DNA of 64,000 nt, from NCBI GenBank assembly GCA_951406725.2, contig OX597840.1, forward strand, positions 24,304,001 through 24,368,000, given 5' to 3'. Origin of the DNA: Octopus vulgaris. Its lineage: Eukaryota. Both the position numbers and the translations under genes were made by a program. Below are positions 1-60,849 of the stretch, in pieces. Under the pieces are notes generated by a model that did not search any database, was not told where the DNA came from, and saw only the letters and a list, made by a program, of their open reading frames with translations. The stretch's first letter is position 1; each line of letters starts with the position of its first letter.

Positions 1-2095
1 GGCAAAGGTGACGCTCTAGATACAAATAACTACAGGGGTATCAAGCTGCTGGATCAGGTAATGAAGGTTACGGAGAGGGTTATAGCCCAACTAATTAGAG
101 AGAGAGTTAGCTTAGATCAGATGCAGTTTGGGTTCGTGCCAGGGAAAAGTACTACTGATGCTATATTCCTGGTAAGACAGCTGCAGGAGAAATACCTAGC
201 CAAAGATAAGCCCCTGTACCTGGCTTTTGTTGACATGGAGAAAGCCTTCGACAGGGTCCCCGATCCCTTATCTGGTGGTCAATGAGGAAACTAGGGATAG
301 ATGAATGGCTAGTGAGAGCTGTGCGAGCCATGTACAGAGACGCTGCTAGTAAGGTAAGGGTTGGCAACGAGTACAGTGAAGAATTCTGGGTAGAGGTTGG
401 GGTCCACCAAGGTTCAGTCCTCAGTCCCCTCCTATTTATCATAGTCCTCCAGGCAATAACGGAGGAATTCAAGACAGGATGCCCCTGGGAGCTCCTCTAT
501 GCTGATGTACTTGCTCTAATTGCTGAGTCACTATCAGAACTGGAGGAGAAGTTCCAGGTGTGGAAGGAGGGTTTAGAATCGAGGGGCCTTAGAGTCAACC
601 TAGCTAAAACCAAAGTACTAATAAGTAGGAAAGTCACAAACGCCTTCAGGTAGATGGCCCAGCTCGATCTGTAGAAAAGGTGTAGGTAGAAACTCTATAA
701 GGTGCACCAAGTGTAAGCTATGGACACATAAGAGGTGCAGCAATGTCAAAGGAAGGCTAACTAGGAAAATAGTTTTTGTCTGTGGCAGATGCTCAGGAGC
801 AATAAACACTGGAAATGTGCAGAGACCAACTTCTACCACGTTTCAGGGAGACAAACCAGAAGTAGTTGATAGCTTCCGCTACCTAGGTGACCAAGTCAGT
901 AGCGGGGGTGGGTGCGCTGAAAGTGTAACTGCTAGAGTAAGAATAGCCTGGGCAAAGTTTAGAGAGCTCTTACCCCTGCTGGTGACAAAAGGCAGACTGT
1001 ATGAGGCATGTGTATGTACAGCGATGCTACATGGTAGTGAAACATGGGCCGTGACTGCTGAGGATATGTGTAAGCTAGCAACAAAAGAAGCCAGTATGCT
1101 CCGATGGATGTGTAATGTCAATGTTCATAATTGACAGAGTGTAAGTACCTTGAGAGAAAAGTTGGACCTAAGAAGCATCAGTTGTGGTGTGCAAGAGAGA
1201 CGTTTGCGCTGGTATGGTCATGTGATGAGAATGGCTGAAGATAGTTGTGTGCAAAAGTGCCACACCCTAGCGGTTGAGGGAACCTGTGGAAGAGGTAGAC
1301 CCAGGAAAACCTGGGACGAGGTGATGAAGCATGACCTTCACACTTTAGGACTCACCAAGGAAATGACTAGAGACCGAGACCTATGGAAGTATGCTGTGAG
1401 TGAGAAGACCCGGCAAGACTAGTGAGACCATAACCCGTGGCCTCTACCTGGTATGTAGCCAGTTGACTTATACATACCTTTCCTTCTTGGGACACAAAAC
1501 TCCACTTGTGAAGACCCGTTGAGGCAAGTGAAAATCAGAATCAAATCAGATATCAGAAGGCAGAACAAAAATCGAAGTCGATCAACATCAATGGAAATTG
1601 CGGCTGTGATACCAGTGCTGGTGACAAGTAAGCGAACCATCCGATCGTGGCCGCCCCGACTGGCCTCCATGCCGGTGACACCTAAGAAGCACCATCCATT
1701 CGTGGCCGTTGCCAGCCTCGCCTGGCCCCCGTGTCGGTGGCACGTAAAAAGCACCATCCATTCGTGGCCGTTGCCAGTGCCGCCCCATCTGGCCTCCGTG
1801 CCGGTGGCACGTAAAAGCACCATTTGTTCGTGTCCGTTGCCAGCCTCGCCTGACCTCCGTGCCGGTGGCACGTAAAAGCACCATCCGTTCGTGGCCGTTT
1901 GCCAGCTCCATCTGGCACGTAAAAAACACTCACTGAACTCGCAGAGTGGTTGGCGTTAGGAAGAGCATCCAGCTGTAGAAACACTGCCAGATCAGACTGG
2001 GCCTGGTGCAGCCTCCTGGCTTCCCAGACCCCGGTCGAACCGTCCAACCCGTGCTAGCATGGAAAACGGACGTTAAACGATGATCATGATGATGA
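1..2095 (+). mobile_element. RTE-clade non-LTR retrotransposon: frameshifted RT region (1-1422) plus 3'UTR ending in (GAT)n
   Basis: Broken ORFs carry QFGFVPGKSTTDAIF, AFVDMEKAFDRV, GVHQGSVLSPLLF, LYADV (decayed YADD), FRYLG, RLRWYGHV and GRGRPRKTW. The 3'UTR has ~62-bp repeats and ends GGACGTTAAACGATGAT. Confidence 0.93.
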
Positions 2096-2172
2096 TATAT
2101 ATACAAATTAAAATCCAGGAAACAGAGAAGTTGCATTAATATAGTTTATTCACTGCAAAAATTCAACATGTA

Positions 2173-5299: not shown

Positions 5300-5893
<594 letters not shown>

Positions 5894-8590
5894 TTACTCT
5901 CCTGTGTGAATGTATTTGTGAGTAGTTAAGTTGTGATTTCGAGAGAATGATTTACCACAGATATCACACTGATAAGGTTTCTCTCCTGTGTGAATGTATT
6001 TGTGAGTACTTAAGCTGTGATTATGAGAGAATGATTTACGACAGATATCACAGTGATAAGGTTTCTCTCCTGTGTGAATGTATTTGTGAGTAATTAAATG
6101 ATGATTCAGAGAGAATGATTTACCACAGATATCACACTGATAAGGTTTCTCTCCTGTGTGAATGTATTTGTGAGTAGTTAAGCTGTGATTTTGAGAGAAT
6201 GATTTACCACAGATATCACACTGATAAGGTTTCTCTCCTGTATGAATACGTTTGTGAGTAATTAAATGATGATTCAGAGAGAATGATTTACCACAGATAT
6301 CACAGTGATAAGGTTTCTCTCCTGTGTGAATACGTTTGTGTTTAATTAACTGACAACTTTTAGAGAATGATTTACCACAGATATCACAATGATATGGTTT
6401 CTCTCCTGTATGAATACGTTTGTGAGTGGTTAGGTCACTATTTCTAGAGAATGATTTACCACACATATCACACTGATAAGGTTTCTCTCCTGTGTGAATG
6501 TATTTGTGAGTAGTTAGGTTGTAATTTAGAGAGAATGATTTACCACAGATATCACAATGATATGGTTTCTCTCCTGTATGAATACGTTTGTGTTTAATTA
6601 ACTGACTACTTTTAGAGAATGATCTACCACAGATATTACCATGATATGGTTTCTCTGCTGTATGAATACGTTTATGAGCGGTTAGGTTGCTATTTACAGA
6701 GAATGATTTACCACAGATATCACAATGATATGGTTTCTCTCCTGTATGAATACGTTTGTGAGTGGTTAGGACGCTATTTTCAGAGAATGATTTACCACAG
6801 ATATCACACTGATAAGGTTTCTCTCCTGTGTGAATGTATTTGTGAGTAGTTAAGTGGTGATTATGAGAGAATGATTTACCACAGATATCACAGCGATAAG
6901 GTTTCTCTCCTGTATGAATACGTTTGTGAGTGGTTAGGTTGCTATTTCCAGAGAATGATTTACCACACATATCACACTGATAAGGCTTCTCTCCTGTGTG
7001 AATGTATTTGTGAGTAGTTAGGTTGTAATTTAGAGAGAATGATTTACCACAGATATCACAATGATATGGTTTCTCTCCTGTATGAATACGTTTGTGTTTA
7101 ATTAACTGACTACTTTTAGAGAATGATCTACCACAGATATTACCATGAAATGGTTTCTCTGCTGTATGAATACGTTTATGAGCGGTTAGGACGCTATTTT
7201 CAGAGAATGATTTACCACAGATATCACACTGATAAGGTTTCTCTCCTGTGTGAATGTATTTGTGAGTAGTTAAGTGCTGATTATGAGAGAATGATTTACC
7301 ACAGATATCACAGCGATAAGGTTTCTCTCCTGTATGAATACGTTTGTGAGTGGTTAGGTTGCTATTTCCAGAGAATGATTTACCACAGATATCACACGCA
7401 TATGGTTTCTCTCCTGTATGAATACGTTTGTGAGTAATTAAATGATGATTCTGAGAGAATGATTTACCACAGATATCACACTGATAAGGTTTCTCTCCTG
7501 TGTGAATGTATTTGTGAGTAGTTAGGTTTTGATTCTGAGAGAATGATTCCCCACAGATATCACACTGATAAGGTTTCTCTCCTGTGTGAATGTATTTGTG
7601 TTTAGTTAGGTTTTGATTCTGAGAGAATGATTTAGCACAGATATCACACTGATAAGGTTTCTCTTCTGTATGAATGTATTTGTGAGTAGTTAAGTAATGA
7701 TTTCGAGAGAATGATTTACCACAGATATCACAGTGATATGGTTTCTCTCCTGTGTGAATGTATTTGTGAGTGGTTAGGTCGCTATTTCTAGAGAATGATT
7801 TACCACAGATATCACACGCATATGGTTTCTCTCCTGTATGAATACGTTTGTGAGTGGTTAGGTCGCCATTTTTAGAGAATGATTTACCACAGATATCACA
7901 ATGATATGGTTTCTCTCCTGTGTGAATGTATTTGTGAGAGGTTAGGTCGCTATTTCTAGAGAATGATTTACCACAGATATCACACTGATAAGGTTTCTCT
8001 CCTGTGTGAATGTATTTGTGAGTAGTTAAGTAATGATTTCGAGAGAATGATTTACCACAGATATCACAGTGATATGGTTTCTCTCCTGTGTGAATACGTT
8101 TGTGTTCAATTAACTGACTACTTTTAGAGAATGATTCACCACAGATATCACAATGAAATGGTTTCTCTCCTGTATGAATACGTTTGTGAGTGGTTAGGTC
8201 GCAATTTCTAGAGAATGATTTACCACAGATATCGCAATGATGTGACTTAACCACAATGTGGATGCATTTGTGAATAGCTAAGCTATGATTCTGTGAGAAT
8301 GATTTACCACAGGTATTACAGCGATACAACTCGACACCTGCGTGAATGTGTTTATGTGTGGTCAAACGAACCTTTTCAGAGAATGATTTACCACAGATGT
8401 CACAGTGATAGAGATCCTCTCCTGCATGGAAACATTTGTGAATCGTCTGTTCATCTTTGAGAAAGAAGGACTTGTTGCAGACATCACAGTGAAATGATGT
8501 TTTCTCTTCTTCTGTTTCATCTTCAGTAAAATCAATCCTTAACGACTGTGTATTACAATTAACCTCATTATCACGTAATTCATTTTCCAT
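5894..8590 (-). CDS. Tandem C2H2 zinc-finger protein U1, 898 aa, 31 finger units (2 with Cys-to-Gly loss)
   Basis: Single ORF of 28-aa CDICGKSFS[12 protein letters not shown] repeats after a short acidic N-terminus; no KRAB, SCAN or BTB motif visible. Confidence 0.95.
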
Positions 8591-8667
8591 TATTTTTCTC
8601 CTCTCACCACAAAGTCCAAATGTTTTTCTTTTTTTTTATATTCTATTCCCCAGTTATTTCTGTTGCT

Positions 8668-15749: not shown

Positions 15750-16680
<931 letters not shown>

Positions 16681-17526
16681 CTCTTGACCGAAAATATAAA
16701 TCAGTTCTTAAACTTTCTCAGCTAGATATTTTCATAAGATATTTAACATCACCTCTGGTAGGCTGCGTGCTGGCAGAAACGTTAGCACACCGGGTGAAAT
16801 GCTTGGCGGTATTTCGTTTGCCGTTACGTTCTGAGCTCAAATTCCACCAAGGTCGACTTTGCCTTTCATCCTTTTGGGGTCGATTATATAAGTACCAGTT
16901 ACACACTGGGGTCGATGTAATCGACTTAATCCGTTTGTCTGTCCTTGTTTCTCCTCTCTGTGTTTAGCCCCTTGTGAGTAGTAAAGAAGTAGGTATTTCG
17001 TCTACCACTATGTTCTGAGTTCAAATTCCACCAAGGTCGACTTTGCCATTCATCCTTTCAGGGTCGATAAATAAAATACCAGTTTCACACTGGGGTAGAT
17101 ATAATCGACTTAATCCCTTTGTCTGTCCTTATTTGTCCCCTCTATGTTTAGCCCCCTAGTGGGCAATAAAGAAATAAATATTTCCATCAACTGTAATCAT
17201 TGTCAATATCTGAGGGGGCTGCCAATTCCTTTGCAATCCAGGTTTAATTAGAATACAGGATTGGTTTTCTTGCACCCATTCCAGGCAGAAAAGTACAGAA
17301 ATGCTGCTAATAATCACACACCCAAAGAAAATCTTTTACAATTCTATAATCGATTTATATAAACAGGGTAATATTTCTTCTGTGTAGCGTCTTAAAGAAT
17401 ATATCATATATATTCATGATGTGCTCGATGTAAAATTTTCTTTTATGCTAAATATCGTCTGATAATCTGAAATAAAAAAAAGAAATATTATGAGATATAG
17501 AATTCACTAGAAAAGTAGAGATTACA

Positions 17527-25258: not shown

Positions 25259-26320
25259 TAGATGTACATGTAATATGTACACATATATACATGCACTAGC
25301 ACTATGACCCGGCAACGACGGGTCTTTAATGCTAGTTGGTAAATAAATGGTAGATAGTGAGTTATATTTCTCACTATAATTATTTTATAATGTATCGATT
25401 TAATTATTTTGTAATTTATCTATATCAGTTCAATCAATTTCTTTAACAAAGTTATAAATGTGATCACGTTGTTCTCTCATTCATATGATACTATTTTTAC
25501 TATAACTCACTAATCTAACATTTATTTAATGCGGTTTCGATTCTCAGACCGGGCGTTGTGTGTGTTTATTGAGCGAAAACACCTAAAGCTCCACGAGGCT
25601 CCGGCAGGGGGTGGTGGCGATCTCTGCTGTACTCTTTCTTCCTGTTTCTTGAGTAATGCTGCGATGGACTGGCGTCCTGTCCAGCTGGTGGTGTAACACA
25701 TATCCCACAGAAACCGGGCCCATGAGCCTGGCTAGGTTTGTAAAGGGCGCATAAATAAATAAAAATAATAAATATACTGGCATTTAATAAAACTGTGTAA
25801 GAGAATAATTTACCACAACTCAATTGCAAGAAGCACTTCCATCAAGTTAAGCTATTTATTCGAGAGAATGATTTAATAGAGGTGCAGGAGTGGCTGTGTG
25901 GTAAGTAGCTTGCTTACCAACCACATGGTTCCGGGTTCAGTCACACTGCGTGGCATCTTGGGCAAGTGTCTTCTGCTATAGCCCCGGGCCGACCAAAGCC
26001 TTGTGAGTGGATTTGGTAGACGGAAAATGAAAGAAGCCTGTCGTATATACGTATACATATATATGTATATATGTGCATGTGTTTGTGTGTCTGTGTTTGT
26101 TCCCCTAGCATTGCTTGTCAATCGATGCTGGTGTGTTACGTCCCCGTTACTTAGTGGTTCAGCAAAAGAGACTGATAGAATAAGTACTGGACTTACAAAG
26201 AATAAGTCCTGGGGTCGATTTGCTCAACTAAAGGCGGTGCTCCAGCATGGCCGCAGTCAAATGACTGAAACAAGTAAAAGTGAGAGAGAGAGAGAGAGTA
26301 ATAGATTTATCACAGTGTTA

Positions 26321-27033
<713 letters not shown>

Positions 27034-29208
27034 CTATAGCGTGTGAACGTATTTGTGTTTAGTTAGGGTTTGATTCTGAGAGAACGATTCTCCACAAATA
27101 TCACACTGATAAGGTTTCTCTCCTGTATGAATGTATTTGTGAGTAGTTAAGTGGTGATTATGAGAGAATGATTTACCACAGATATCACAGTGATAAGGTT
27201 TCTCTCCTGTATGAATGTATTTGTGTTTAGTTAAGTGGTGATTATGAGAGAATGATTTACCACAGATATCACAGTGATAAGGTTTCTCTCCTGTATGAAT
27301 GTATTTGTGAGTAGTTAAGTGGTGATTCTGAGAGAATGATTTACCACAGATATCACAATGATATGGTTTCTCTCCTGTATGAGTACGTTTGTGAGTAATT
27401 AAAGGATGATTCAGAGAGAATGATTTACCACAGATATCACAGTGATAAGGTTTCTCTCCTGTGTGAATATATTTGTGTCTAGTTAGGGTTTGATTCTGAG
27501 AGAATGATTCTCCACAGATATCACAGTGATAAGGTTTCACTCCTGTGTGAATATATTTGTGATTAGTCAGGTTTTGATTCAGAGAGAATGATTTACCACA
27601 GATATCACAATGATATGGTTTCTCTGCTGTATGAATACGTTTGTGAGTGGTTAGGTTGCTATTTCCAGAGAATGATTTACCACAGATATCACAATGATAT
27701 GGTTTCTCTCCTGTGTGAAGACGTTTGTGAGTGGTTAGGTCGCCATTTCTAGAGAATGATTTACCACAGATATCACAATGATATGGTTTTTTTCCCGTAT
27801 GAATACGCATGTGTGTAGTCAACACAACATTCTGAGAGAATGATTTACCACAGATATCACAGTGATAAGGTTTTTCTCCTGTGTGAATGTATTTGTGAGT
27901 AGTTAAGTTGTGATTATGAGAGAATGATATACCACAGATATCACAATAATATGGTTTCTCTCCTGTATGAATACGTTTGTGAGTGGTTAGGTCGCCATTT
28001 CTAGAGAATGATTTACCACAGATATCACAATGAAATGGTTTCTCTCCTGTATGAATACGTTTGTGAGTGGTTAGGTCGCCATTTCTAGAGAATGATTTAC
28101 CACAGATATCACAATGATACGGTTTCTCTCCTGTGTGAATGTATTTGTGAGTAGTTAAGTGGTGATTTTGAGAGAATGATTTACCACAGATATCACAATG
28201 ATATGGTTTCTCTCCTGTATGAATACGTTTGTGTTTAATTAAATGACTACTTTCAGAGAATGATTTACTACAGATATCACAATGATATGGTTTCTCTCCT
28301 GTATGAATACGTTTGTGAGTTGTTAGGTCGCCATTTCTAGAGAATGATTTACCACAGATATCACAGTGATAAGGTTTTTCTCCTGTGTGAATGTATTTGT
28401 GAGTAGTTAAGTTGTGATTATGAGAGAATGATTTACCACAGATATCACACTGATAAGGTTTCTCTCCTGTGTGAATGTATTTGTGTTTAGTTAAGTCTTG
28501 TTTTCGAATGAATGATTCTCCACAGATATCACACTGATAAGGTTTCTCTCCTGTATGAATGTATTTGTGAATAGTTAAGCTGTGAATATGAGAGAATGAT
28601 TGGCCACAGATATCACACTGATATGGTTTCTCACCTGTATGAATACGTTTGTGACTCGTTAGGTTTTTATTCTGAGAGAATGATTTACCACAGATATCAC
28701 AATGATATGGTTTCTCTGCTGTATGAATACGTTTATGAGTGGTTAGGTTGCTATTTCCAGAAAATGATTTACCACAGATATCACAATGATATGGTTTCTC
28801 TCCTGTATGAATACGCTTGTGAGTGGTTAGGTTGCTATTTCCAAAGAATGATTTACCACAGATATCGCAATGATGTGATTTAACCACAATGTGGATGCAT
28901 TTGTGAATAGCTAAGCTATGATTCTGAGAGAATGATTTACCACAGGTATTACAGCGATACAACTCGACACCTGCGTGAATGTGTTTATGTGTGGTCAAAC
29001 GAACCTTTTCAGAGAATGATTTACCACAGATGTCACAGCGATAGAGATCCTCTCCTGCATGGAAACATTTGTGAATCGTCTGTTCATCTTTGAGAAAGGA
29101 CTTGTTGCAGACATCACAGTGAAATGATGTTTTCTCTTCTTCAGTAAAATCAATCCTTAACGACTGTGTATTACAATTAACCTCATTATCACGTAATTCA
29201 TTTTCCAT
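27034..29208 (-). CDS. Tandem C2H2 zinc-finger protein U3, 724 aa, about 25 fingers
   Basis: Same N-terminus as U1 ([21 protein letters not shown]) followed by 28-aa finger repeats. Confidence 0.95.
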
Positions 29209-30774
29209 TATTTTTCTCCTCTTACCACAAAGTCCAAATGTTTTTCTTTTTTTCTTCTTTTTTTTATATTCTATTCCCCAGTTATTTCTGTTGCTTGAAA
29301 TGCTTAGCGGTATTTCGTCTGTCTTTTTGTTCTGAGTTCAAATTCCACCGAGGTCGACTTTGCCTTTCATCCTTTCAGGGTCAATAAATAAAGTACCAGT
29401 TTCACACTGGGGTAGATATAATCGACTTAATCGCTTTGTCTGTCCTTATTTGTACCCTCTATGTTTAGCCCCCTAGTGGGCAATAAAGAAATATATATTT
29501 CCATCAACTTTAATCATTGTCAATATCTGAGGGGGCTGCCAATTCCTTTGCAATCCAGGTTTAATTGGAATACATGATTGGTTTTCTTGCACCTATTCCA
29601 GGCAGTAAAGTACAGAAATGCTGCTAATAATCACACACCCAAAGAAAATCTTTTACAATTCTATAATCGATTTATATAAACAGGGCAATATTTCTTCTGT
29701 GTAGCATCTTAGTTTCATCTCAAAGAATATATCATATATATTCGTGATGTGTTCGATGTAAAATCTTCTTTTATGCTAAATATCCTCTCTGATACTCTGA
29801 AATAAAAAAGAAATAATATGAGATATAGAATATACTTGAAAAGTAAAGATTAAATAATGAAAATTTTATTACGTTTTTATACTGATAAACTGGAGATATA
29901 AACCTTTAGCTGGCCAAATAAACGTTAACACGTCAGTCTGACACACAAACAAGGAGATTATAAGGTAGTTATGGGATGTGCTAAAAATAATAGTTAAATA
30001 GCTCTTAAATCACGCAGCAATTTCAAAAATTTTGTTTTGGTGTTTGCACAATCCTATGAATTACAGATTCGCAAGAGTTTTCTAAAAATTCCCCAAAAGT
30101 TTTGAACCAACAAAGAATTTATAATTTACATCTGCTGTTTGTTTGTTGAGCGAAGCGGTCTTCGTCTCAGAGCTCGCAAGATGGAATAAGTCGGAAACGC
30201 GGTCCTTTGCTATTCGTAAGACCCGCAGAAGAGAAAGCAGGGCAGCCCCCCCGCCCCTGAGGCTCGGCGGTTGCGTAGGAAGTCGGGGGACAAGAAACAG
30301 GAAGAAAGAGTGAGAGAAAGTTGGGGCGAAAGAGTACAACAGGGGTCGCCACAACCCTGTGCTAGAGCATCGTGGAGCTTTAGGTGTTTTCGCTCAATAA
30401 ACACTCACAACGCCCGGTCTGGGAATCGAAACCGCGATCCTCCGAATGCGAGTCCGCTGCCCTAACCACTGGGCCATTGCGCCTCCACTTACATCTGTTT
30501 TATATGAAATACCAGAAGTTATTGTGTTAAAAAGAGCAAGGACTAATGTTTACATTGAAACGGTTGATGATGATGATGATGATATATATATATATATTTA
30601 TTGCCCACAAGGGGATATACAAAAAGGGGACAAACAAGGACAGACATAGGGATTAAGTCGATTACATCGAACCCAGTGCATAACTGGTACTTAATTTATC
30701 GACCCTGAAAGATGAAAGGCAAAGTCAACCTCAGTGGAATTTGAACTAATAACGTAAAGACACATGCATTTCGC

Positions 30775-36300: not shown

Positions 36301-37696
36301 TGAGAATGTGTGCCTGTCTGTCTGTGTGTTTCCCTAAAACTTGAGAACTACACAACCAATTTCATTAGAATTTTACACATGCCTTACTTAGGGTCCATGT
36401 AGTTTCATGGGCAAAAAAAAAATGTTCAACTTCTTGCCTAGAGCGAGCCCATAGCAATATCTTCTTCATTGTTTCAGTATTACATGTTAAAAGTGAAACA
36501 GAAATATTTCTTCATTTTATGTCAGATGCTTTCACTTTAACAATAAAAATAATAACAATTGAATTATATGTAGTAAGTAATAATTAAAATCAAACTAAAG
36601 TATAATATAATCGTAGCATACAAAAGTAAAAATAGCATCAATGATTTGAACTTGAATAAGTGGTTTCACATGAATGGGAATAAACTAAAAATATAATTAG
36701 CGTGCAGAAATGGAATAGTCCAGATGGATAATACAAAATTAAATTAAAAACAAGACTTTTGTCCATAAAGTATACAACGTAGAGAAAAAAGAAGAGCTAA
36801 CAATTCCAGTCTGTTATATATTTTGAGTATTGTTATCACTAGCGATATCAAGATATAACTTTGTATTTTGCATTTTATGTGTAGATGTATATAGATAGAT
36901 GTACATGTAATATGTACACATATATAAATGAACTAGCACAATGACCCGGCAACGACGGGTCTTTAATGCTAGTTGGTAAATAAATGGTAGATAGTGAGTT
37001 ATATTTCTCACTATAATTATTTTATAATGTATCGATTTAATTATTTTGTAATTTATCTATATCAGTTCAATCAATTTCTTTAACAAAGTTATAAATGTGA
37101 TCACGTTGTTCTCTCATTCATATGATACTATTTTTACTATAACTCACTAATCTAACATTTATTTAATGCGGTTTCGATTCTCAGACCGGGCGTTGTGTGT
37201 GTTTATTGAGCGAAAACACCTAAAGCTCCACGAGGCTCCGGCAGGGTGTGGTGGCGATCTCTGCTGTACTCTTTCTTCCTGCTTCTTGAGTAATGCTGCG
37301 ATGGACTGGCGTCCTGTCCAGCTGGTGGTGTAACACATATGCCACAGAAACCGGGCCCATGAGCCTGGCTAGGTTTGTAAAGGGCGCATAAATAAATAAA
37401 AATAATAAATATACTGGCATTTAATAAAACTGTGTAAGAGAATAATTTACCACAACTCAATTGCAAGAAGCACTTCCATCAAGTTAAGCTATTTATTCGA
37501 GAGAATGATTTAATAGAGGTGCAGGAGTGGCTGTGTGGTAAGTAGCTTGCTTACCAACCACATGGTTCCGGGTTCAGTCACACTGCGTGGCATCTTGGGC
37601 AAGTGTCTTCTGCTATAGCCCCGGGCCGACCAAAGCCTTGTGAGTGGATTTGGTAGACGGAAAATGAAAGAAGCCTGTCGTATATACGTATACATA

Positions 37697-37863
37697 TCAT
37701 CATCATCATCATCATCGTTTAACGTCCGCTTTCCATGCTAGCATGGGTTGGACGGTTCAACTGGGGTCTGGGAAGCCAGAAGGCTGCACCAGGCTCAAGT
37801 CTGATCTGGCAGTGTTTCTACAGCTGGATGCCCTTCCCAACGCCAACCACTCCATGAGTGTAG
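37697..37863 (-). mobile_element. RTE 3' terminal fragment with (GAT)n tail
   Basis: Reverse complement of the element end seen at 1935-2095 and 4893-5058. Confidence 0.85.
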
Positions 37864-38049
37864 TTATTATTATTGTTATTGTTATTATTATTATTCATTT
37901 TGTTCAACATGTACAAGTACGTATGTGTTCAATATTGTTTTATTCAATTTTAGAAAAACTGAAACATGTCATAGACAATTCTAGAACATATTGAATTTTG
38001 TGCATGACTTTTGGCTCATCCTGTATGTATGTATATGTATGTATGTATA

Positions 38050-38130
<81 letters not shown>

Positions 38131-38896
38131 GTATATGTATGTATTTTGGCCTGCTGACTTAGTCAGTAGGGTGGCCTCGTTAGAAAGCTAAAACGATGCA
38201 AAGTGCATTGTGGCTAGCGATGTATAACAGCATTCAACAGTCTGCTCAATCACATGATCATGTGATATATATATATGTGTATGGGACACTGCCTTTGTGT
38301 GTGTGTGTGTGGTGGGAGGAAGAAGAAGCATCCGTTTAGGTGTATATATGCAGGGTTTTTTGGGGAACAAGAATGAAAACGTGTTTGCATGATTAAGTAC
38401 GCACGTGCATGCATGCGTGTGTGCATGTATTTGTGAGTGTGGGTGTGTTAGTCCATATTGATTGTCATGGGGTGGTTTATGTGAGTGTGTAGGTGTTAAT
38501 GTGTATGTGTAAGGGCATGTGCTTGTTTGTGTATACATGCCTCTACATGAAACTGTGTGCAGAGACTGTGTGTATGAGAGACAGAGAGAGAGAGAGAAGA
38601 AGAGGAAGAAGCAATATGTCTTAGTTCTTGGTGTCATCTCCATTCTTTTGTTGATTATATTGGCGGTGCCACTCCATGTTGGTCTTTGACACTCCTTCAC
38701 CCCGTTTTGCAGCCTGTCTCCCGCTGTACATCACAATGATGCAAAGGACAATGGTGACAGCAACCATGCAGAGGCTGACATAGACACGGCTCAAGTCTTT
38801 GCCTTTGTTGATCACTGATATCGAAATGTATTCGGGGACATCTTCAACAGATTTATATTTCTTATGCCAAACCAAAACGCGTTTATCAAAATTAGT
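37864..38896 (-). pseudogene. FAM162: 5'-truncated processed retrocopy of a FAM162 / UPF0389 (DUF1075)-family gene; coding part 38621-38896
   Basis: TNFDKRVLVWHKKYKSVEDVPEYIS...RVYVSLCMVAVTIVLCIIVMYSGRQAAKRGEGVSKTNMEWHRQYN matches the family pattern from memory. Intronless, then about 700 nt of 3'UTR-like sequence, AATAAA near 37940 and an (AAT)n tail; absent from U3. Confidence 0.8.
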
Positions 38897-39646
38897 TTAT
38901 ATATGTATATATGTGCATGTGTTTGTGTGTCTGTGTTTGTTCCCCTAGCATTGCTTGTCAATCGATGCTGGTGTGTTACGTCACCGTTACTTAGTGGTTC
39001 AGCAAAAGAGACTGATAGAATAAGTACTGGACTTACAAAGAATAAGTCCTGGGGTCGATTTGCTCAACTAAAGGCGGTGCTCCAGCATGGCCGCAGTCAA
39101 ATGACTGAAACAAGTATAAGAGAGAGAGAGAGAGTAATAGAATTATCACAGTGTTATGGTTTCTTTCCTGCGTGGATATGTTTGTGAGTAGTTAAGTTAC
39201 CTTTTTGAGAGAAAGATTTTTCACATACATCACAGTGATAAGGCTTCTCTCCTGTGTGAATGTGTTTGTGAGAAATTAAGGTATGGTTCTGAGAGAAGGA
39301 TTTACCACAGATATCACACACGTATGGCTTCTCTCCTGTGTGAACACGTTTGTGTTTGATCAAGACATCGCTCTGTGAAAAAGACTTTCCACAGATATCG
39401 AAGTGATATGGCCTCCCTCCTGTATGAATAAGTTTGTGTTTAGCTAAGTGATGATTTAAAGAGAATGATTTACCACAGATATCACAGTGATATGGCTTCT
39501 CTTTACTATGAATGCGTTTATGAAGATTTAAGTCACCAGCGAATGACTTTCCACAGGTATCACAGTAGCATGCTTTCTCTCCAGTATGGAAGGGTTTGTG
39601 TTTAGTTAAATGTTGATTTTGTGAGAATGATTTACCAGAAATATCA

Positions 39647-39910
<264 letters not shown>

Positions 39911-42172
39911 CTATAGCGTGTGAACGTATTTGTGTTTAGTTAGGGTTTGATTCTGAGAGAACGATTCTCCACAAATATCACACTGATAAGGTTTCTCTCC
40001 AGTGTGAATGTATTTGTGAGTAGTTAAGTGGTGATTATGAGAGAATGATTTACCACAGATATCACAGTGATAAGGTTTCTCTCCTGTATGAATGTATTTG
40101 TGTTTAGTTAAGTGGTGATTATGAGAGAATGATTTACCACAGATATCACAGTGATAAGGTTTCTCTCCTGTATGAATGTATTTGTGTTTAGTTAAGTGGT
40201 GATTCTGAGAGAATGATTTACCACAGATATCACAATGATATGGTTTCTCTCCTGTATGAATACGTTTGTGAGTAATTAAAGGATGATTCAGAGAGAATGA
40301 TTTACCACAGATATCACAGTGATAAGGTTTCTCTCCTGTGTGAATATATTTGTGTCTAGTTAGGGTTTGATTCTGAGAGAATGATTCTCCACAGATATCA
40401 CAGTGATAAGGTTTCACTCCTGTGTGAATATATTTGTGATTAGTTAGGTTTTGATTCAGAGAGAATGATTTACCACAGATATCACAATGATATGGTTTCT
40501 CTGCTGTATGAATACGTTTGTGAGTGGTTAGGTTGCTATTTCCAGAGAATGATTTACCACAGATATCACAATGATATGGTTTCTCTCCTGTGTGAAGACG
40601 TTTGTGAGTGGTTAGGTCGCCATTTCTAGAGAATGATTTACCACAGATATCACAATGATATGGTTTTTTTCCCGTATGAATACGCATGTGTGTAGTCAAC
40701 ACAACATTCTGAGAGAATGATTTACCACAGATATCACAGTGATAAGGTTTTTCTCCTGTGTGAATGTATTTGTGAGTAGTTAAGGTGTGATTATGGGAGA
40801 ATGATTTACCACAGATATCACAATAATATGGTTTCTCTCCTGTATGAATACGTTTGTGAGTGGTTAGGTCGCCATTTCTAGAGAATGATTTACCACAGAT
40901 ATCACAATGAAATGGTTTCTCTCCTGTATGAATACGTTTGTGAGTGGTTAGGTCGCCATTTCTAGAGAATGATTTACCACAGATATCACAATGATACGGT
41001 TTCTCTCCTGTGTGAATGTATTTGTGAGTAGTTAAGTGGTGATTTTGAGAGAATGATTTACCACAGATATCACAATGATATGGTTTCTCTCCTGTATGAA
41101 TACGTTTGTGTTTAATTAAATGACTACTTTCAGAGAATGATTTACTACAGATATCACAATGATATGGTTTCTCTCCTGTATGAATACGTTTGTGAGTTGT
41201 TAGGTCGCCATTTCTAGAGAATGATTTACCACAGATATCACAGTGATAAGGTTTTTCTCCTGTGTGAATGTATTTGTGAGTAGTTAAGTTGTGATTATGA
41301 GAGAATGATTTACCACAGATATCACACTGATATGGTTTCTCTCCTGTGTGAATGTATTTGTGTTTAGTTAAGTCTTGTTTTCGAATGAATGATTCTCCAC
41401 AGATATCACACTGATAAGGTTTCTCTCCTGTATGAATGTATTTGTGAATAGTTAAGCTGTGAATATGAGAGAATGATTGGCCACAGATATCACACTGATA
41501 TGGTTTCTCACCTGTATGAATACGTTTGTGACTCGTTAGGTTTTTATTCTGAGAGAATGATTTACCACAGATATCACAATGATATGGTTTCTCTGCTGTA
41601 TGAATACGTTTATGAGTGGTTAGGTTGCTATTTCCAGAAAATGATTTACCACAGATATCACAATGATATGGTTTCTCTCCTGTATGAATACGCTTGTGAG
41701 TGGTTAGGTCGCTATTTCCAGAGAATGATTTACCACAGATATCACACTGATATGGTTTCTCTCCTGTATGAATACGTTTGTGAGTGGTTAGGTTGCTATT
41801 TCCAAAGAATGATTTACCACAGATATCGCAATGATGTGACTTAACCACAATGTGGATGCATTTGTGAATAGCTAAGCTATGATTCTGAGAGAATGATTTA
41901 CCACAGGTATTACAGCGATACGGCTCGACACCTGCGTGAATGTGTTTATGTGTGGTCAAACGAACCTTTTCAGAGAATGATTTACCACAGATGTCACAGT
42001 GATAGAGATCCTCTCCTGCATGGAAACATTTGTGAATCTTCTGTTCATCTTTGAGAAAGGACTTGTTGCAGACATCACAGTGAAATGATGTTTTCTCTTC
42101 TTCTTCAGTAAAATCAATCCTTAACGACTGTGTATTACAATTAACCTCATTATCACGTAATTCATTTTCCAT
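39911..42172 (-). CDS. Tandem C2H2 zinc-finger protein U4, 753 aa, about 26 fingers
   Basis: Nearly identical to U3 with one extra finger (GNSDLTT) and one extra Glu. Confidence 0.95.
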
Positions 42173-43741
42173 TTTTTTTCTCCTCTCACCACAAAGTCCA
42201 AATGTTTTTCTTTTTTTTCTTCTTTTTTTTATATTCTATTCCCCAGTTATTTCTGTTGCTTGAAATGCTTAGTGGTATTTCGTCTGTCTTTTTGTTCTGA
42301 GTTCAAATTCCACCGAGGTTGACTTTGCCTTTCATCCTTTCAGGGTCAATAAATAAAGTACCAGTTTCACACTGGGGTAGATATAATCGACTTAATCCCT
42401 TTGTCAGTCTTTGTCCCCTCTATGTTTAGCCCCTTAGTGGGCAATAAAGAAATATATATTTCCATCAACTGTAATCATTGTCAATATCTGAGGGGCTGCC
42501 AATTCCTTTGCAATCCAGGTTTAATTAGAATACAGGATTGGTTTTCTTGCACCCATTCCAGGCAGTGAAGTACAGAAATGCTGCTAATAATCACACACCC
42601 AAAGAAAAACTTTTACAATTCTATAATCGATTTATATAAACAGGGTAATATTTCTTGTGTGTAGCATCTTAGTTTCAACTTAAAGAATATATCATATATA
42701 TTCATGATGTGTTCGATGTAAAATCTTCTTTTATGCTAAATATCCTCTCTGATACTCTGAAATAAAAAAGAAATAATATGAGATATAGAATATACTTGAA
42801 AAGTAAAGATTAAATAATGAAAATTTTATTATGTTTTTATACTGATAAACTGGAGATATAAACCTTTAGCTGGCCAAATAAACGTTAACACGTCAGTCTG
42901 ACAAACAAACAAGGAGATTATAAGGTAGTCATAGGATGTGCTAAAAGTAATAGCTAAGTAGCTCTTAAATCACGCAGCAATTTTAAAAATTTGGTTTTGG
43001 TTTTTGCACAATCCTATGAATTACAAATTCGCAAGAGTTTTCTAAAAATTCCCCAAAAGTTTTGAACCAACAAAGAATTTACGATTTACATCTGCTGTTT
43101 GTTTGTTGAGTGAAGCGGTCTTCGTCCCAGAGCTCGCAAGATGGAATAAGTTGGAAACGTGGTCCTTTGCTATTCGTAAGACCCGCAGAAGAGAAAGCAG
43201 GTCAGCCTCCCCGACACCGAGAGCATCGACGGATGAATGAATGCGCATCCAGGCTTGGCGGTGGCGTAGGAAGTCGGGGGACAAGAAACAAGAAACGGTT
43301 GATGATGATGATGATGATGATATATATATATATATATATTTATTGCCCACAAGGGGATATACAAAGAGGGGACAAACAAGGACAGACATAGGGATTAAGT
43401 CGATTACATCGAACCCAGTGCATAAACTAGTACTTAATTTATCGACCCTGAAAGATGAAAGGCAAAGTCGACCTCAGTGGAATTTGAACTCATAACGTAA
43501 AGACACATGCATTTCGCCCGTCGTGCTAATGTTGCTGCCAGCTCGCCACCTTTAGATATATATATATATAAATATTTTATTTTATTTTATAGAAGGAGCT
43601 TCTACAGTACTAGAACTGTTTCATTCAGATGAAATAGTTCTAATCCTGTAGAAGCTCCTTCTATAAAATAAATTACTTTACTCTGCTATGTATTGAGTAC
43701 CTTATTTACTGTGGTTAACCCCGACTCAACCCGGGACCTAC

Positions 43742-53857: not shown

Positions 53858-54988
53858 AAATAATAATAATAATAATAATAATGAAATTATTGTATACAGT
53901 GCTCAGGTGCACCACAACTTGTCAGAAAGTGCATATAAAGTACATGCAGTAGTGTAGAAATGTCTGGGTGTATGGAGGGGAGAAAATCAAGTGTAGTGTT
54001 GGCGAATCTCAGGAAGCATGGAAGTTTTGAAGGATGCAGTGCTCCGACAACTAACAACCGATGTCGGCAGTTTGTTCCATGCTTCAGCAACTCTCAGCGT
54101 GAAAAAATGTTTCCTGAAGTCATGGGAGCTGTGCTGTTTTCTTACTTTGTAAATATGTCCACGGGTGTTAGATGGGTGGAGTTTGAAGAGGTGCTCAGAG
54201 TTATTGTTTGTGCGATGGTTGATAATTTTATGGGTGTCTGCCAAGTCAGCTGCCAGACGTCGGAGTTTCAATGTGTCCATGCCCAGGGAGGTAAGGCGTT
54301 CAGGATATGGCAAATGCCTGATGGAGGGTATTCTTTTGGTTGCACGTCGCTGAACAGCTTCCAGATGATTGATGTCCTGGGCAAGATAGGGGCTCCAGAC
54401 CGGCGATGCAAACTCCAGGTGAGGTCTTACCATAGCTATATGCAGCCGCAGATAGATAGCCGGAGAGCGGCTCACAAAGGATTTGGTGAGTGATGCCAAG
54501 ACACCCTCAGCCTTCTTGACAATTTTAGCGATGTGTTTTGTCCAACGCAAATCGCTGTCGACAATAACACCCAGGTCACGTTCACATGAAGACTTTTTGA
54601 GACTAGTGTTGTGGAGGGAGTAGGTGGACGCTGGGTTTCTCCTCCCAAAATGCATGGTGGTACATTTGTCCACAGCCAGCTTGAGTTGCCAGTCCATGAT
54701 CCACTGCTGCATTGTGTCCAGGTCTGCTTGCAATAGAGATCCATAGTGTATAGGATTTGACCTCTTTATTTCGAGGTACAGCTTGATGTCATCTGCATAT
54801 TTCAGCACTGTGGCATTCTTTAAGTTGGCATCTATGTCATTAACATATGCAACAAATAAAAGGGGGCCAAGAACAGATCCCTGCGGCACACCAGATGTCA
54901 TCTCATAGGGTGAAGAGTGCTGTCCTAGAACTGTGACAACCTCTTTTCGGCCGAAAATAAAGGACTTTAACCAGTTATAGAGTTCGTC
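53858..54988 (-). mobile_element. 5'-truncated CR1/L2-type LINE with an uninterrupted RT C-terminal ORF (53987-54901), inserted in a SINE
   Basis: SGVPQGSVLGPLLF, YADDIKL, ERDLGVIVD, VRPHLEFASPVWSP and FFTLRVAEAWNKLP motifs; (ATT)n tail; the SINE resumes near 54989. A related 3' stub lies at 56065-56162 (+). Confidence 0.93.
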
Positions 54989-55152
54989 TGTCCCCGTTAC
55001 TTAGCGGTTCAGCAAAAAGAGACCGATAGAATAAGTACTGGGCTTACAAACAATAAGCCCCGGGGTCAATTTGCTCGACTAAAGGTGGTGCTCCAGCATG
55101 GCCGCAGTCAACTGACTGAAACAAGTAAAAGAGTAAAGAGAGTATATATATA

Positions 55153-56016: not shown

Positions 56017-57740
56017 GTAAGTAAACCCCGTTTTTACACCTTTATTCATTCATCAACTCCCATCCTCATGCTTTCCGAAATCCGTCGAAACTACACCTGA
56101 TTATATATGCACTTTAGATGAGTTGTAGTGCACCTGAGCACTGTACACAATGTTTATTATTATATCCTAACATATTCTAAGCATCCCTAATAATAACGAT
56201 TATAGTAACTTATCGAACTTGGTAAGAAAACCACTAATTTACTATGACGATGGCCTTTACATGGTTACTACTTTCTTTTCGACACCCCCGTAGCAATGTG
56301 AATGTACAGCCCGAAGTTTTAGTGTCATTTTACAATACATTCCTTTTGTTTGGGGCATACCTTCAACAGGTATTCATACACGAACATGCATTTTAGGTGT
56401 GACCCAAACAATAGGGAAATATGTACAAGAGTTTATATACATATTAAGAGAGAGACACAAATTTCGTTTGTTATAATACTTTAAACAGGTTATTGTACGT
56501 CACGCTCGGGGGGGGGGGGGATATTAAGAGCAACACCAGGTATGTTTGAGTTATTAGCGTAAACATGTTTTTATACCTGAAAATAAAAATAAAAACAAGA
56601 TGTACAATCAGAGGTAGATATAAAGTCTCTCTGAGTTATCCCTGAGCCGTTTTCAAATATAAGACACCCCCTCAAAAAACAAAGTATATCATAACCTACC
56701 TACCTACATACCTATGCACCTACCTGCTTACCTACCTATTTGCCTACTTAACTACCTACCTACTTATCTCTCTACTTACCTACCTATCTCTCTACTTAAC
56801 TACCTACCTCTCTACTTACTATTGATACAAGGGTGTTTTATGTTTGTAAAAAATCTCAGCATCCCCCCCCCATTCATTTTTCTTTTTAATTATAAATATT
56901 TTCCTTTCAAATAACGAAGCAGTTAGGTTTCTAGTAGTCCTCGCTGTCCCATTCAGGTGAAGTGGAGAGGCTAAGGGGCGAAACGCTACTGACCCTGAGA
57001 TACCGGCTGATGATAACACAAAGATTTCTAGCACTGCGATGGATTTAAGAGCTTGCAAAATCTCTTAGTAGCTTCTGCAGTTTCTATGTGGGACAAAGCG
57101 CTTCTGATGATTAATTCACCTACCCCACAGACACACACACTCCTTTTAGCTAGGGGTAAATGAAGTATAATGTCTCACCCCTAACCTTAAGCTATATTCA
57201 CTCCCCTCAGGAAAAATTTATCGCATTGCCCAGTCCAGGAGCCTGCGATATCGCGAGCATGAGTATAGTACACAACCCCAATCTCTAGGCCTCCACCCAT
57301 ATGTTATACTACTCGTACACACAGTATTATGTGACATAGGACACACACACACACATGCGCGCAGTATTTGATGGCATAGGACATGCCAGGCATATTAGAC
57401 ACAGCCCTTATTAAATGGGGAAGCTAAGATGTATGGTTATATAGTAGCCTCAGTGTCACCTTGATAAAAGCTTCCCATGGGGCTGACCGCTCAGCCAGCC
57501 AGCTACTCTGCTTCCCCAATTTCAGCAGTGCTTAGCCTAAAATACATTATCTTTAAACAAACCTATCATCACATTAAACTACTTAACAATACAAAAGCAC
57601 TTCAGTTGTAACAGAAAACCTTATTGTTTGTACAGTCAATAGAAAAGCTGAACTTTACTTTCATTTAACATAAACATGTACGTCTTTTAGGACAGAGTTC
57701 AAGATTTTGCTGGAAAATTCCTAAATTAACATAAACATTT

Positions 57741-59370
57741 ATCATCATCATCATCATCATCATTTAGCGTCCGCTTTCCATGCTGGCATGGGTTGGACGG
57801 TTCAGCTGGGGTCTGGGAAGTCAGAAGGCTGCACCAGGCTCTCCAGTCTGATCTGGCAATGTTTCTACAGCTGGATGCCCTTCCTAACGCCAACCACTCC
57901 ATGAGTGTAGTGGGTGCTTTTTACGTGCCACCTGCACAGGTGCCAGGCGAGGCTGGCAAACGGCCACGATCGGATGGTGCTTTTTACGTGCCACTGGCAC
58001 AGGGGCCAGATGAGGCTGGCAACGGCCATGATCGGATGGTGCTTTTTACGTGCCACTGGCACAGGGGCCAGATGAGGCTGGCAACGGCCATGATCGGATG
58101 GTGCTTTTTACGTGCCACTGGCACAGGGGCCAGATGAGGCTGGCAACAGCCATGATCGGATGGTGCTTTTTACGTACCACTGGCACAGGGGCCAGATGAG
58201 GCTGGCAACGGCCATGATCGGATGGTGCTTTTTACGTGCCACTGGCACAGGGGCCAGATGAGGCTGGCAAACGGCCACGATCGGATGGTGCTTTTTACGT
58301 GCCACTGGCACGGGGGCCAGATGAGGCTGGCAAATGGCCATGATCGGATGGTGCTTTTTACGTGCCACTGGCACAGGGGCCAGATGAGGCTGGCAACGGC
58401 CATGATCGGATGGTGCTTTTTACGTGCCACTGGCACAGGGGCCAGATGAGGCTGGCAAACGGCCACGATCGGATGGTGCTTTTTACGTGCCACTGGCACA
58501 GGGGCCAGATGAGGCTGGCAAACGGCCACGATCGGATGGTGCTTTTTACGTGCCACTGGCACAGGGGCCAGATGAGGCTGGCAAACGGCCACGATCGGAT
58601 GGTGCTTTTTACGTGCCACTGGCACGGGGGCCAGATGAGGCTGGCAAATGGCCATGATCGGATGGTGCTTTTTACGTGCCACTGGCACAGGGGCCAGATG
58701 AGGCTGGCAACGGCCATGATCGGATGGTGCTTTTTACGTGCCACTGGCACAGGGGCCAGATGAGGCTGGCAACGGCCACGATCGGATGGTGCTTTTTACG
58801 TGCCACTGGCACAGGGGCCAGATGAGGCTGGCAAACGGCCACGATCGGATGGTGCTTTTTACGTACCACTGGCACAGGGGCCAGATGAGGCTGGCAATGG
58901 CCATGATCGGATGGTGCTTTTTACGTGCCACTGACACAGGGGCCAGATGAGGCTGGCAACGGCCATGATCGGATGGTGCTTTTTACGTGCCACTGGCACA
59001 GGGGCCAGATGAGGCTGGCAACGGCCATGATCGGATGGTGCTTTTTACGTGCCACTGGCACGGGGGCCAGATGAGGCTGGCAAATGGCCATGATCGGATG
59101 GTGCTTTTTACGTGCCACTGGCACAGGGGCCAGATGAGGCTGGCTACGGCCATGATCGGATGGTGCTTTTTACGTGTCACTGGCACAGGGGCCAGATGAG
59201 GCTGGCAACGGCCACGATCGGATGGTGCTTTTTACGTGCCACTGGCACAGGGGCCAGATGAGGCTGGCAAACGGCCACGATCGGATGGTGCTTTTTACGT
59301 GCCGCTGGCACGGGGGCCAGATGAGGCTAGCAACAGCCACGATCGGATGGTGCTTTTTACGTACCACTGG
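57741..59370 (-). repeat. RTE 3' end whose 62/63-bp UTR unit is expanded to about 23 tandem copies (AKR intron 1)
   Basis: Unit GGTGCTTTTTACGTGCCACTGGCACAGGGGCCAGATGAGGCTGGCAA(A)CGGCCA(T/C)GATCGGAT spans about 57913-59370 and adjoins the (CAT)n RTE tail. Confidence 0.9.
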
Positions 59371-60849
59371 TAGCTATTTCTTCTACTTTAAAAAGGGACT
59401 CCCAGAAAAACCAAAATACTTGAAAACATATATATATATATATATAAATTGATAAATAAATAAAATATATACATACATATATGTACGTACCTACCTCTAC
59501 ATGTATATATACATGCATATATGGGTACAGGACACCAAAAAAACGTCGAACACAATGAGAAACGAAAACATAAACACAAAACCAAGGAACTGGACATTTT
59601 TCTTAAACAACGAAAAAATAGAGTACAGGACAAATAACACAAGGAAAATTCCCCTTCTTCAGTCACCATGGTTTCATCTACTCTGCGTTTCGAAGGTCAT
59701 ATCCTGTTAAACCTGCCAACACATGCCAGCATTGAAAACCAATGTTAAATGAAGATAATTACACAAACGAGAGCCAGAATGATTAACTAAAAATTCAAAC
59801 CTGAGCTTCTATTATAATTTCTAAAGTGTCAATGTTCCAAATATTTGTATTTAATCCCATGCTCAAAATATTTTGTTTGAATTGTATCTTTTCAGTGCAA
59901 AATATGGAATTGTATAAAGTAATTAGCAAAGACAATTAATTCACTGAATATTGTTGCATTCCAATCCTTTATTTTTTTTTTGTATAGACAACAAAACAGT
60001 AATTCTTGTGAATCTGAAGAATGGTTTGGTGCCAGAGATATATCGGATAAAACAACCCTATTTTAAAACCATTTCTATTCATCCCATTGCTGCCAAGGAG
60101 TTTTTGGTGGAGATGAAGCCATGTGGTTAGAAGTTTGCTTCCAAACCACGATTCCTGGTTCAGTCCCACTGCACAGCACCTTGAGCAAGTATCTTTTACT
60201 TTGGCCCATGGCTGACCAAAACCTTCTGGATTTGGTAGGCAGAAATGATTCTTTCGGAGAAAGTATATCAAAATTAAGTTTTCGTTCAGCAATTCTTTAA
60301 TAATTTTTCAGCAGAATATGGTGGGTGTGTTAGAACTTCCTGATCAAACTCTTGAATAAAATTGGACAGAGGGGAATTGATATGGCAGTCTAGTCTTTTA
60401 TTTAATACCCACACTGTGTCTATGTATGTGTGTATATATACACGCACGCACAAGCATACCCCCAAAAATGCATAGACATTAGTAATTTAGCTGAAAAAAT
60501 AATTGAAAACAAATTTCTTTACTGAAATTACTAAACAAATATTTTCAATTTTGATGCACTGTCTCTGAAATACAGCCAAGAGAAACTGAAAGAAGCTTGT
60601 CAAAAGGTAATAACCTGAAGGTGCTATATTAGAATATGGCAGGTGTGTTAGAATTTCCTAACCAAAAACTCTCGAATGTTCCGCACAGTGAGATTGAAAC
60701 CGGGAACCATGTCATTGCCGAGTCAACTTCTTAACAACTTTATTCTTAATGTTTAGTTCTTTTTTCTTTATCAGTACTTGACAAAAATTAATGAACTGTT
60801 AATTAATTTTAAGGTCTAATTTTGCTAAATTGTATTTTTTTGTTGATAG

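Follow-up and report, generated by a model that had tools for sequence, protein, structure and literature searches.

Retrotransposons of the LINE type that recognise the 3′ end of their own RNA are thought to be poor makers of retrogenes, because cellular RNAs must first gain a 3′ segment of the LINE (PMC4476161). In the L2 system of the eel, the tail of UnaL2 alone is reported to suffice for mobilisation in trans, with priming starting in the terminal repeat (PMC1636434), and the terminal repeats of RTE elements have been proposed to be linked to target choice (PMC6007223). Several kinds of chimera between cellular RNAs and LINEs have been described. The RTE-tailed SINEs of platypus (snoRTE/PlatSINE1) and hagfish (SINE1-1_EBu) have a cellular RNA head and a LINE-derived tail with a microsatellite end, and their dispersed copies are of uniform chimeric structure (PMC7245038, PMC3747384); RTE parts in SINEs are also treated in PMC5786205. 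SVA_F1, with exon 1 of MAST2, and chimpanzee pt_SVA_D6, with exon 1 of STK40, comprise 84 and 94 copies, respectively, and are described as one first exon spliced onto an existing element that is moved by the poly(A)-recognising L1 (PMC6139936). The U6/L1, U6/L2, U6/RTE and MINE/WEIRD-MGL chimeras are reported as independent events with full-length 5′ RNA and varying LINE breakpoints (PMC4476161, PMC2104539). Outside mammals, CR1 and Tx1 are said to sustain retrocopies in a 2026 preprint whose main text is silent on RTE (10.64898/2026.06.26.734816), and recent RTE activity has been reported in octopus (PMC9115989, PMC13282606).

Here we describe a small, young SINE-like family of Octopus vulgaris with a host mRNA as its body. 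Its first member was recognised in a stretch of 64,000 nucleotides of contig OX597840.1, hereafter the window. No mRNA-headed family with an RTE tail and no FAM162 retrocopy was found in the literature searched, which consisted mainly of the main texts of freely accessible papers.

The insertion in the window and its parent gene

Reading of the sequence revealed a 1,202-nt insertion on the minus strand of the window, in which a spliced FAM162-like mRNA is followed by a LINE tail and the whole is bounded by a 3-nt target duplication. The coding part (38621..38897, minus strand; FAM162-like, DUF1075) is 5′-truncated and has no start codon. It covers residues 56-146 of the 146-aa parent protein and the stop codon (38623-38621, minus strand), and a profile search matched its frame to Pfam PF06388 with an E value of 1.9e-25. 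The exon 2/3 junction lies at 38823/38822 (minus strand), where the 4,227-nt parent intron has been removed. Only the proximal part of the parent 3′ UTR is present (37864..38620, minus strand), and the whole mRNA-derived part differs from the parent reference by 12 substitutions when low-complexity runs are excluded. The UTR includes the left part of a MITE-like element (37864..38023, minus strand), the right part of which is replaced by the LINE tail. Inside this MITE are an AATAAA (37944-37939, minus strand) and an (AAT/AAC)n run (37864..37895, minus strand) that contains the fusion junction common to all family copies. The tail consists of the last 147 nt of an RTE-like LINE 3′ UTR (37717..37864, minus strand), is of the older-wave type, near the tails of long-ORF elements, and ends in a (GAT)7 terminal repeat (37696..37716, minus strand), which is likely the priming site of reverse transcription. 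The target duplication, ATA, has its 3′ copy at 37695..37697, overlapping the last GAT, and its 5′ copy at 38898..38900 (both minus strand); it sits within a TA microsatellite and is therefore weak as a target site duplication.

The insertion is hosted by a dispersed repeat (37517..39135, plus strand, borders approximate), which we take to be SINE-like and which is split at its internal TA/TG microsatellite. An empty site exists in a paralogous zinc-finger (ZNF) unit, U3, at 26058..26060. Units U3 and U4 are 98.2-99.1% identical on both sides of the insertion, U3 is without all 1,202 nt, and in the comparison 3 nt (ATA) are common to both sides. The C2H2 zinc-finger frame of U4 (39911..42235, minus strand) is on the strand of the insertion, and its stop (39911) is 1,014 nt upstream. 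An earlier note on this DNA had proposed a single RNA-derived insertion of spliced mRNA and LINE tail, absent from U3 near 26058 and lying about 1 kb downstream of the U4 stop in sense orientation; the minus-strand reading, the loss of the intron, the one 3-nt duplication, the empty site and the measured distance bear this out. From this arrangement the note supposed that the copy may be co-transcribed with the ZNF gene; with its start codon missing, the copy itself is likely inert.

The surroundings hold further insertions. Unit U1 carries, at 3790-5056 (plus strand), another insertion in the same microsatellite internal to the presumed SINE, here a piece of LINE 3′ UTR in opposite orientation, and one microsatellite site has received two separate insertions in the paralogous units U1 and U4. 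Tandem C2H2 zinc-finger units occupy window positions 5308-8635, 26394-29337, 39154-42235 and 15901-16707; U3 and U4 have in common a TAG that cuts the zinc-finger array, with more fingers in a later frame. A reverse transcriptase (RT) fragment of another LINE type lies at 53987-55000 (minus strand; RVT_1, E 1.7e-18).

A search of the genome with the coding part gave nine matches, namely two exons on contig G000:C21 and seven intronless copies, the window copy included. On this contig the parent gene is divided into three exons by introns of 4,645 and 4,227 nt, both with GT-AG borders, and its frame codes for 146 aa, which confirms the loss of introns that had been supposed. At the parent locus in the assembly there is no LINE tail at the junction position. 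The parent (AAT)n run is internal to the MITE-like element, which has 35-nt terminal inverted repeats that are 80% complementary, and the AATAAA and the AAT-rich stretch are retained in most related MITE copies. Parent transcript contigs from three RNA-like runs (so termed by guess, backed by contigs crossing exon junctions) extend at least 850 nt past the junction position. The junction is therefore inside the UTR and is not a poly(A) site, as the earlier note had held it to be; the AATAAA is that of the MITE. A contig of run X10, the only one that bridges the parent junction site, has the parent length and no insertion, and leftover lengths in runs X1, X2, X6, X13 and X19 are also compatible with a plain parent allele. 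Just past the junction, parent and LINE both have TACA. The earlier note had named two situations that would speak against its reading, an intronless parent already followed by the tail and an RTE piece with a target duplication of its own; because the parent has introns and no tail at the junction, neither was encountered. A 435-nt copy of the distal parent 3′ UTR was found without a tail at G000:C12:69153986-69154418 (L154; 90% identical). Its 3′ end is near a parent AATAAA, and it is possibly an older ordinary retrocopy.

The dispersed family and its partner LINE

The same FAM162-like mRNA/LINE-tail junction occurs in at least 32 copies on 19 contigs, among them the window copy. The last 141 nt before the (AAT)n run were used as the UTR query, and 40 of the 499 candidates were scored. 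Identities were 96-100% in 29 (the parent and 28 copies) and about 80% in 11 (related MITEs), and among the 40 scored the tail starts at the same junction base in 28/28 non-parent copies. A genome search with the exact 19-mer of the junction gave 31 occurrences, as against one for the reversed control, and led to six further places, of which four are shorter members, one is ambiguous (L048) and one is an older separate tail (L049). The count of 32 adds these four to the 28 found by UTR and is a lower bound that leaves out L049 as well as L048 and L161, both of which may be very short members. Against at least 32 tailed copies stands one tail-less FAM162 retrocopy, the older piece of distal UTR.

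All family copies terminate in (GAT)n, as do the LINEs, and the longest GAT run has 3-13 units among the 29 copies measured. The 5′ ends range from parent position 1 to 1224. A TA-type microsatellite follows in 13 of the 32 copies, and apparent target duplications are short and often ambiguous. Beyond common repeats, no 5′ or 3′ flank abutting the junctions is common to the family copies, and we found in them no poly(A), no second target duplication at the mRNA/tail junction and no 3′ transduction of flanks of the parent or its neighbour. Copies are up to 1,438 nt long. The longest (L029) begins in exon 1, 110 nt upstream of the ATG, and is without either intron; a private frameshifting deletion marks the only copy that extends to parent position 1. 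Two copies, L023 (G000:C3:168.62 Mb) and L026 (G000:C32:0.868 Mb), have an ATG and an intact 146-aa ORF, the L023 protein being identical to that of the parent, and judged by their reading frames they are candidate retrogenes. A second, independent copy of young type (L012, G000:C27:24378887-24379500) lies in the same ZNF region, 11 kb past the window end and 37 kb from the window copy. In L032 (G000:C16:57906156), which has the same junction, about 90 nt of tail before the GAT repeats are missing, either by later deletion or by priming without the 3′-most part. About 400 nt upstream of the L026 insertion, a long inverted repeat is centred on an ATC/GAT run (L006:2400-2700, G000:C32).

Two age classes can be told apart. 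In a young group of 10 copies, private substitutions amount to 0.20% (12/6,019 sites); in the remaining 22, which include the window copy, they amount to 0.73% (71/9,672). At the site of L029, contigs of X19 and X2 leave the flank for sequence that does not resemble the element; this insertion is therefore absent in both. In X19, a DNA run, one contig extends over each exon junction by 30 letters, a single letter less than the bridging rule demands. Its depth is 103, as compared with 13-18 for single-copy contigs, although depth does not equal copy number, and it suggests that intronless FAM162 copies are also present in the X19 sample.

Linkage between markers of body and tail extends over the junction and speaks for a source that was already fused: G932 occurs in 7/7 young-type and 0/10 other copies, and A1232 accompanies T10 in 5/7 as against 4/25 copies. 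There is also mosaicism. All four combinations, each seen at least twice, were found for 30 pairs of sites within the body, within the tail and between both, and three tail variants occur in every combination among the 21 older copies; the three sites that vary in the older family tails vary among ordinary tails as well. Allelic recombination at the parent locus would produce mosaic bodies. For mosaic tails, sequence must have been exchanged with further tails, either through gene conversion or because the RT, guided by homology, switched templates from LINE RNA. At positions 1219 and 1222 the copy-type letters are also found in transcripts of the parent in X2 and X13, and the copies therefore derive from ordinary parent haplotypes. 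Family-specific SNPs were tried as proof of one origin and rejected, since 1219 and 1222 failed and 1174 is polymorphic among parent transcripts.

The partner LINE is represented in the window by a broken 3′ part (1..2100, plus strand) with an RT, a PHD-like finger and a 3′ UTR bearing the same tail and GAT repeats. We treat it as RTE-like from its C-terminal motifs, from the label in the earlier note and from the RTE activity reported in octopus (PMC9115989, PMC13282606). One related element (L184) has a 966-aa frame that combines, as in the RTE clade, an AP endonuclease (Exo_endo_phos_2, E 2e-5, below the curated cut-off) with an RT (RVT_1, E 1e-32); its 5′ end is interrupted. Its tail shows 93% identity to the tail of the young copies; from the most frequent older type it deviates at 1/14 key sites. 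Of the exact matches to the tail, 26,817 continue past the junction base into the upstream letters of the LINE and 198 do not, so the junction base is no hot spot of breakage; 198 is about the number that even 5′ truncation would give. Elsewhere, some plain tails that break at this base are embedded in (AAT)n or (ATT)n runs, such as L127 and L049 in (AAT)n. In 60 of the 198 places, picked mostly by a shared upstream triplet, no second family of mRNA and tail was found at this breakpoint. The folding of the tail is not above that of shuffles (z 0.08). The 3′ UTR of the LINE contains a unit of ~62 nt (window 1600-1920), of which more than 20 tandem copies occur at window 57730-59380. In L100, L102, L125 and L168, tails stand head to head with their own inverted copy and resemble twin-priming or fold-back products.

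The source of the tails is one LINE sub-lineage. Within one difference of a 9-site type are 30/31 family tails as against 17/90 ordinary ones (Fisher p 3e-15, for copies that are not independent). Of 115 non-chimeric tails examined, one agrees with the young type at the 13 key sites. This one, C21:32044138-32043991, has the orientation of the parent gene and lies downstream, 5.1 kb from the parent junction, with an AATAAA directly after its GAT run, and differs from the young type at three positions, of which two are CpG transitions. A segment of 85 nt from the young tail has 13 matches in the genome, comprising eight known members, two too short to tell and three ordinary tails, and 0/30 sampled tails are free of other changes. 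Since the match was noticed post hoc, and 0/114 other tails match and the 40 kb examined hold two same-strand tails as candidate neighbours, we put the probability of a chance match at about 1-5%. The young tail would thus point to an allele of the parent gene as its source, although the allele itself was not seen.

Origin of the fusion

The fusion most likely pre-existed in a source RNA that was copied repeatedly by the RTE-like LINE, as a SINE would be. On balance we favour a history in which all copies were made by the RT of this LINE from the transcript of a tail-bearing parent allele, and a later exchange founded the young wave. A 5′-truncated LINE end would have inserted into the (AAT)n run of the MITE in the parent 3′ UTR, and the tail-bearing allele would have been transcribed from the parent promoter and spliced. 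The LINE protein, if it depends on its tail as is assumed here from other clades, would then bind the tail, prime in the GAT repeats at TA-rich targets and continue into the mRNA until it dissociated. The mosaic copies would stem from recombination with normal alleles of the parent and with different tails; a single unchanged source is insufficient because of the combinations of tail variants among the 21 older copies. The young-wave tail may have been acquired by exchange with the downstream LINE end, either by conversion or by a 5.1-kb deletion between direct repeats. Neither the assembly nor the contigs of eight runs, which skip the junction as a repeat and drop rare alleles, showed a parent allele with the tail. 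Splicing of the UTR to a downstream tail was considered and rejected, as there is no GT-AG at the junction. That the working protein-coding gene is itself the master of the family, having captured a tail and later swapped it for that of the LINE end nearby, and has seeded polymorphic retrocopies in two waves, a few of them with an intact ORF, is a reading we offer tentatively, at slightly less than an even chance.

The parent is without a tail in the assembly and in the contigs examined, and the source could instead have been a dispersed full-length master, perhaps with daughters, that arose by one founding template switch or by insertion of a tail into an earlier retrocopy and is now missing from the assembly or unrecognised. 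The TACA microhomology at the junction fits a jump, template switching of an RTE-clade LINE has been reported for U6 (PMC4476161), and subfamilies with linked markers are present; such a master can be absent from the assembly because insertions are polymorphic. We nevertheless regard it as rather unlikely. No copy has a common foreign 5′ flank, none extends past parent exon 1, and the sole copy that reaches position 1 has its private frameshift. The resemblance between the young tail and the LINE end near the parent, and the four-gamete patterns in the mRNA part, are left unexplained. The earlier note had supposed that, at the window insertion itself, the RT jumped from the RTE tail to a cellular mRNA. 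The common, UTR-internal junction without poly(A), at a base that is no hot spot of breakage, gives no support to this; a template jump would have to be confined to the founding event. Independent jumps from LINE RNA to normal FAM162 mRNA, directed to the same base each time by microhomology or an RT pause, would account for mosaic bodies and tails and for the missing source allele, and switch hot spots have been reported for MINE/WEIRD chimeras (PMC2104539). They are improbable in view of a junction that is internal to the mRNA, the rarity of tails broken at its base, the lack of a second family in the 60 places inspected, family tails that are not a sample of the LINE pool, a young tail type nearly confined to the family, and the linkage of body and tail.

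Duplication of one locus at the DNA level, or a poly(A) retrocopy followed by a separate LINE insertion, might be suspected from a target duplication of just 3 nt in a TA microsatellite, and microsatellites are frequent landing sites of LINE ends. Both are scarcely credible and were rejected: the copies have no introns, vary in 5′ end and GAT length and stand in unrelated flanks, the junction has neither poly(A) nor a second target duplication, and U3 is without the whole 1.2 kb.

Significance and comparison with known systems

The family represents the gain of a LINE tail by a cellular RNA at an early, countable stage, with one junction, about 32 copies and two age classes, and further marked by at least one insertion missing in other samples and by a possible donor of the tail next to the parent. 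How the mRNA of a host turns into a SINE-like element becomes testable. Such families may be lost when repeat libraries are cleared of host-gene contamination, a step that PMC13282606 describes. The suggestion in the earlier note that a tail-specific LINE makes retrocopies does appear to hold for this host gene, but a template jump at this insertion is not supported. The search that the note proposed, for other mRNA ends joined to the tail, had a positive outcome for the FAM162 fusion itself and a negative one for a second family at this breakpoint in the 60 places inspected. If the gene is indeed the master, any gene with a young RTE tail ending its UTR could behave alike, and retrogene formation would be generally open to tail-specific LINEs.

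L1 processed pseudogenes likewise combine intron loss, 5′ truncation, dispersal and few intact ORFs (PMC3747384). In the FAM162 family introns are removed, but the mRNA 3′ end has no poly(A); there is instead a LINE tail with GAT repeats, target duplications are very short, and copy number would depend on the captured tail. The U6 and MINE/WEIRD-MGL chimeras likewise place a cellular RNA 5′ of a 5′-truncated LINE end, in the same orientation and in one insertion (PMC4476161, PMC2104539), and the window copy similarly joins two RNAs directly, in the same orientation, within one pair of direct repeats. In contrast to these products of template switching, with their full-length 5′ cellular RNA and differing LINE breakpoints, the FAM162 family has a fixed junction and an RNA that is cut internally at its 3′ end and truncated at varying 5′ points. 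In SVA_F1 and pt_SVA_D6, too, a host mRNA was fused once and then amplified (PMC6139936). The FAM162 family differs from both in having a whole coding mRNA and only 147 nt of LINE tail, with no GT-AG at the junction and no poly(A).

The family is also like the RTE-tailed SINEs of platypus and hagfish. The family has a 3′ end in common with an autonomous LINE, the microsatellite end of that LINE and a uniform chimeric structure in all dispersed copies. It departs from a strict SINE in that its 5′ part consists of protein-coding exons and not of a Pol III head derived from tRNA, 5S, 7SL or snRNA, and in being neither short nor non-coding, given its longest copies and the 146-aa ORFs of L023 and L026. 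The FAM162 family has as its head a spliced, protein-coding Pol II mRNA without a small-RNA promoter, and it comprises ~32 copies of up to 1.44 kb, two with a full ORF, whose source is likely the host locus itself.
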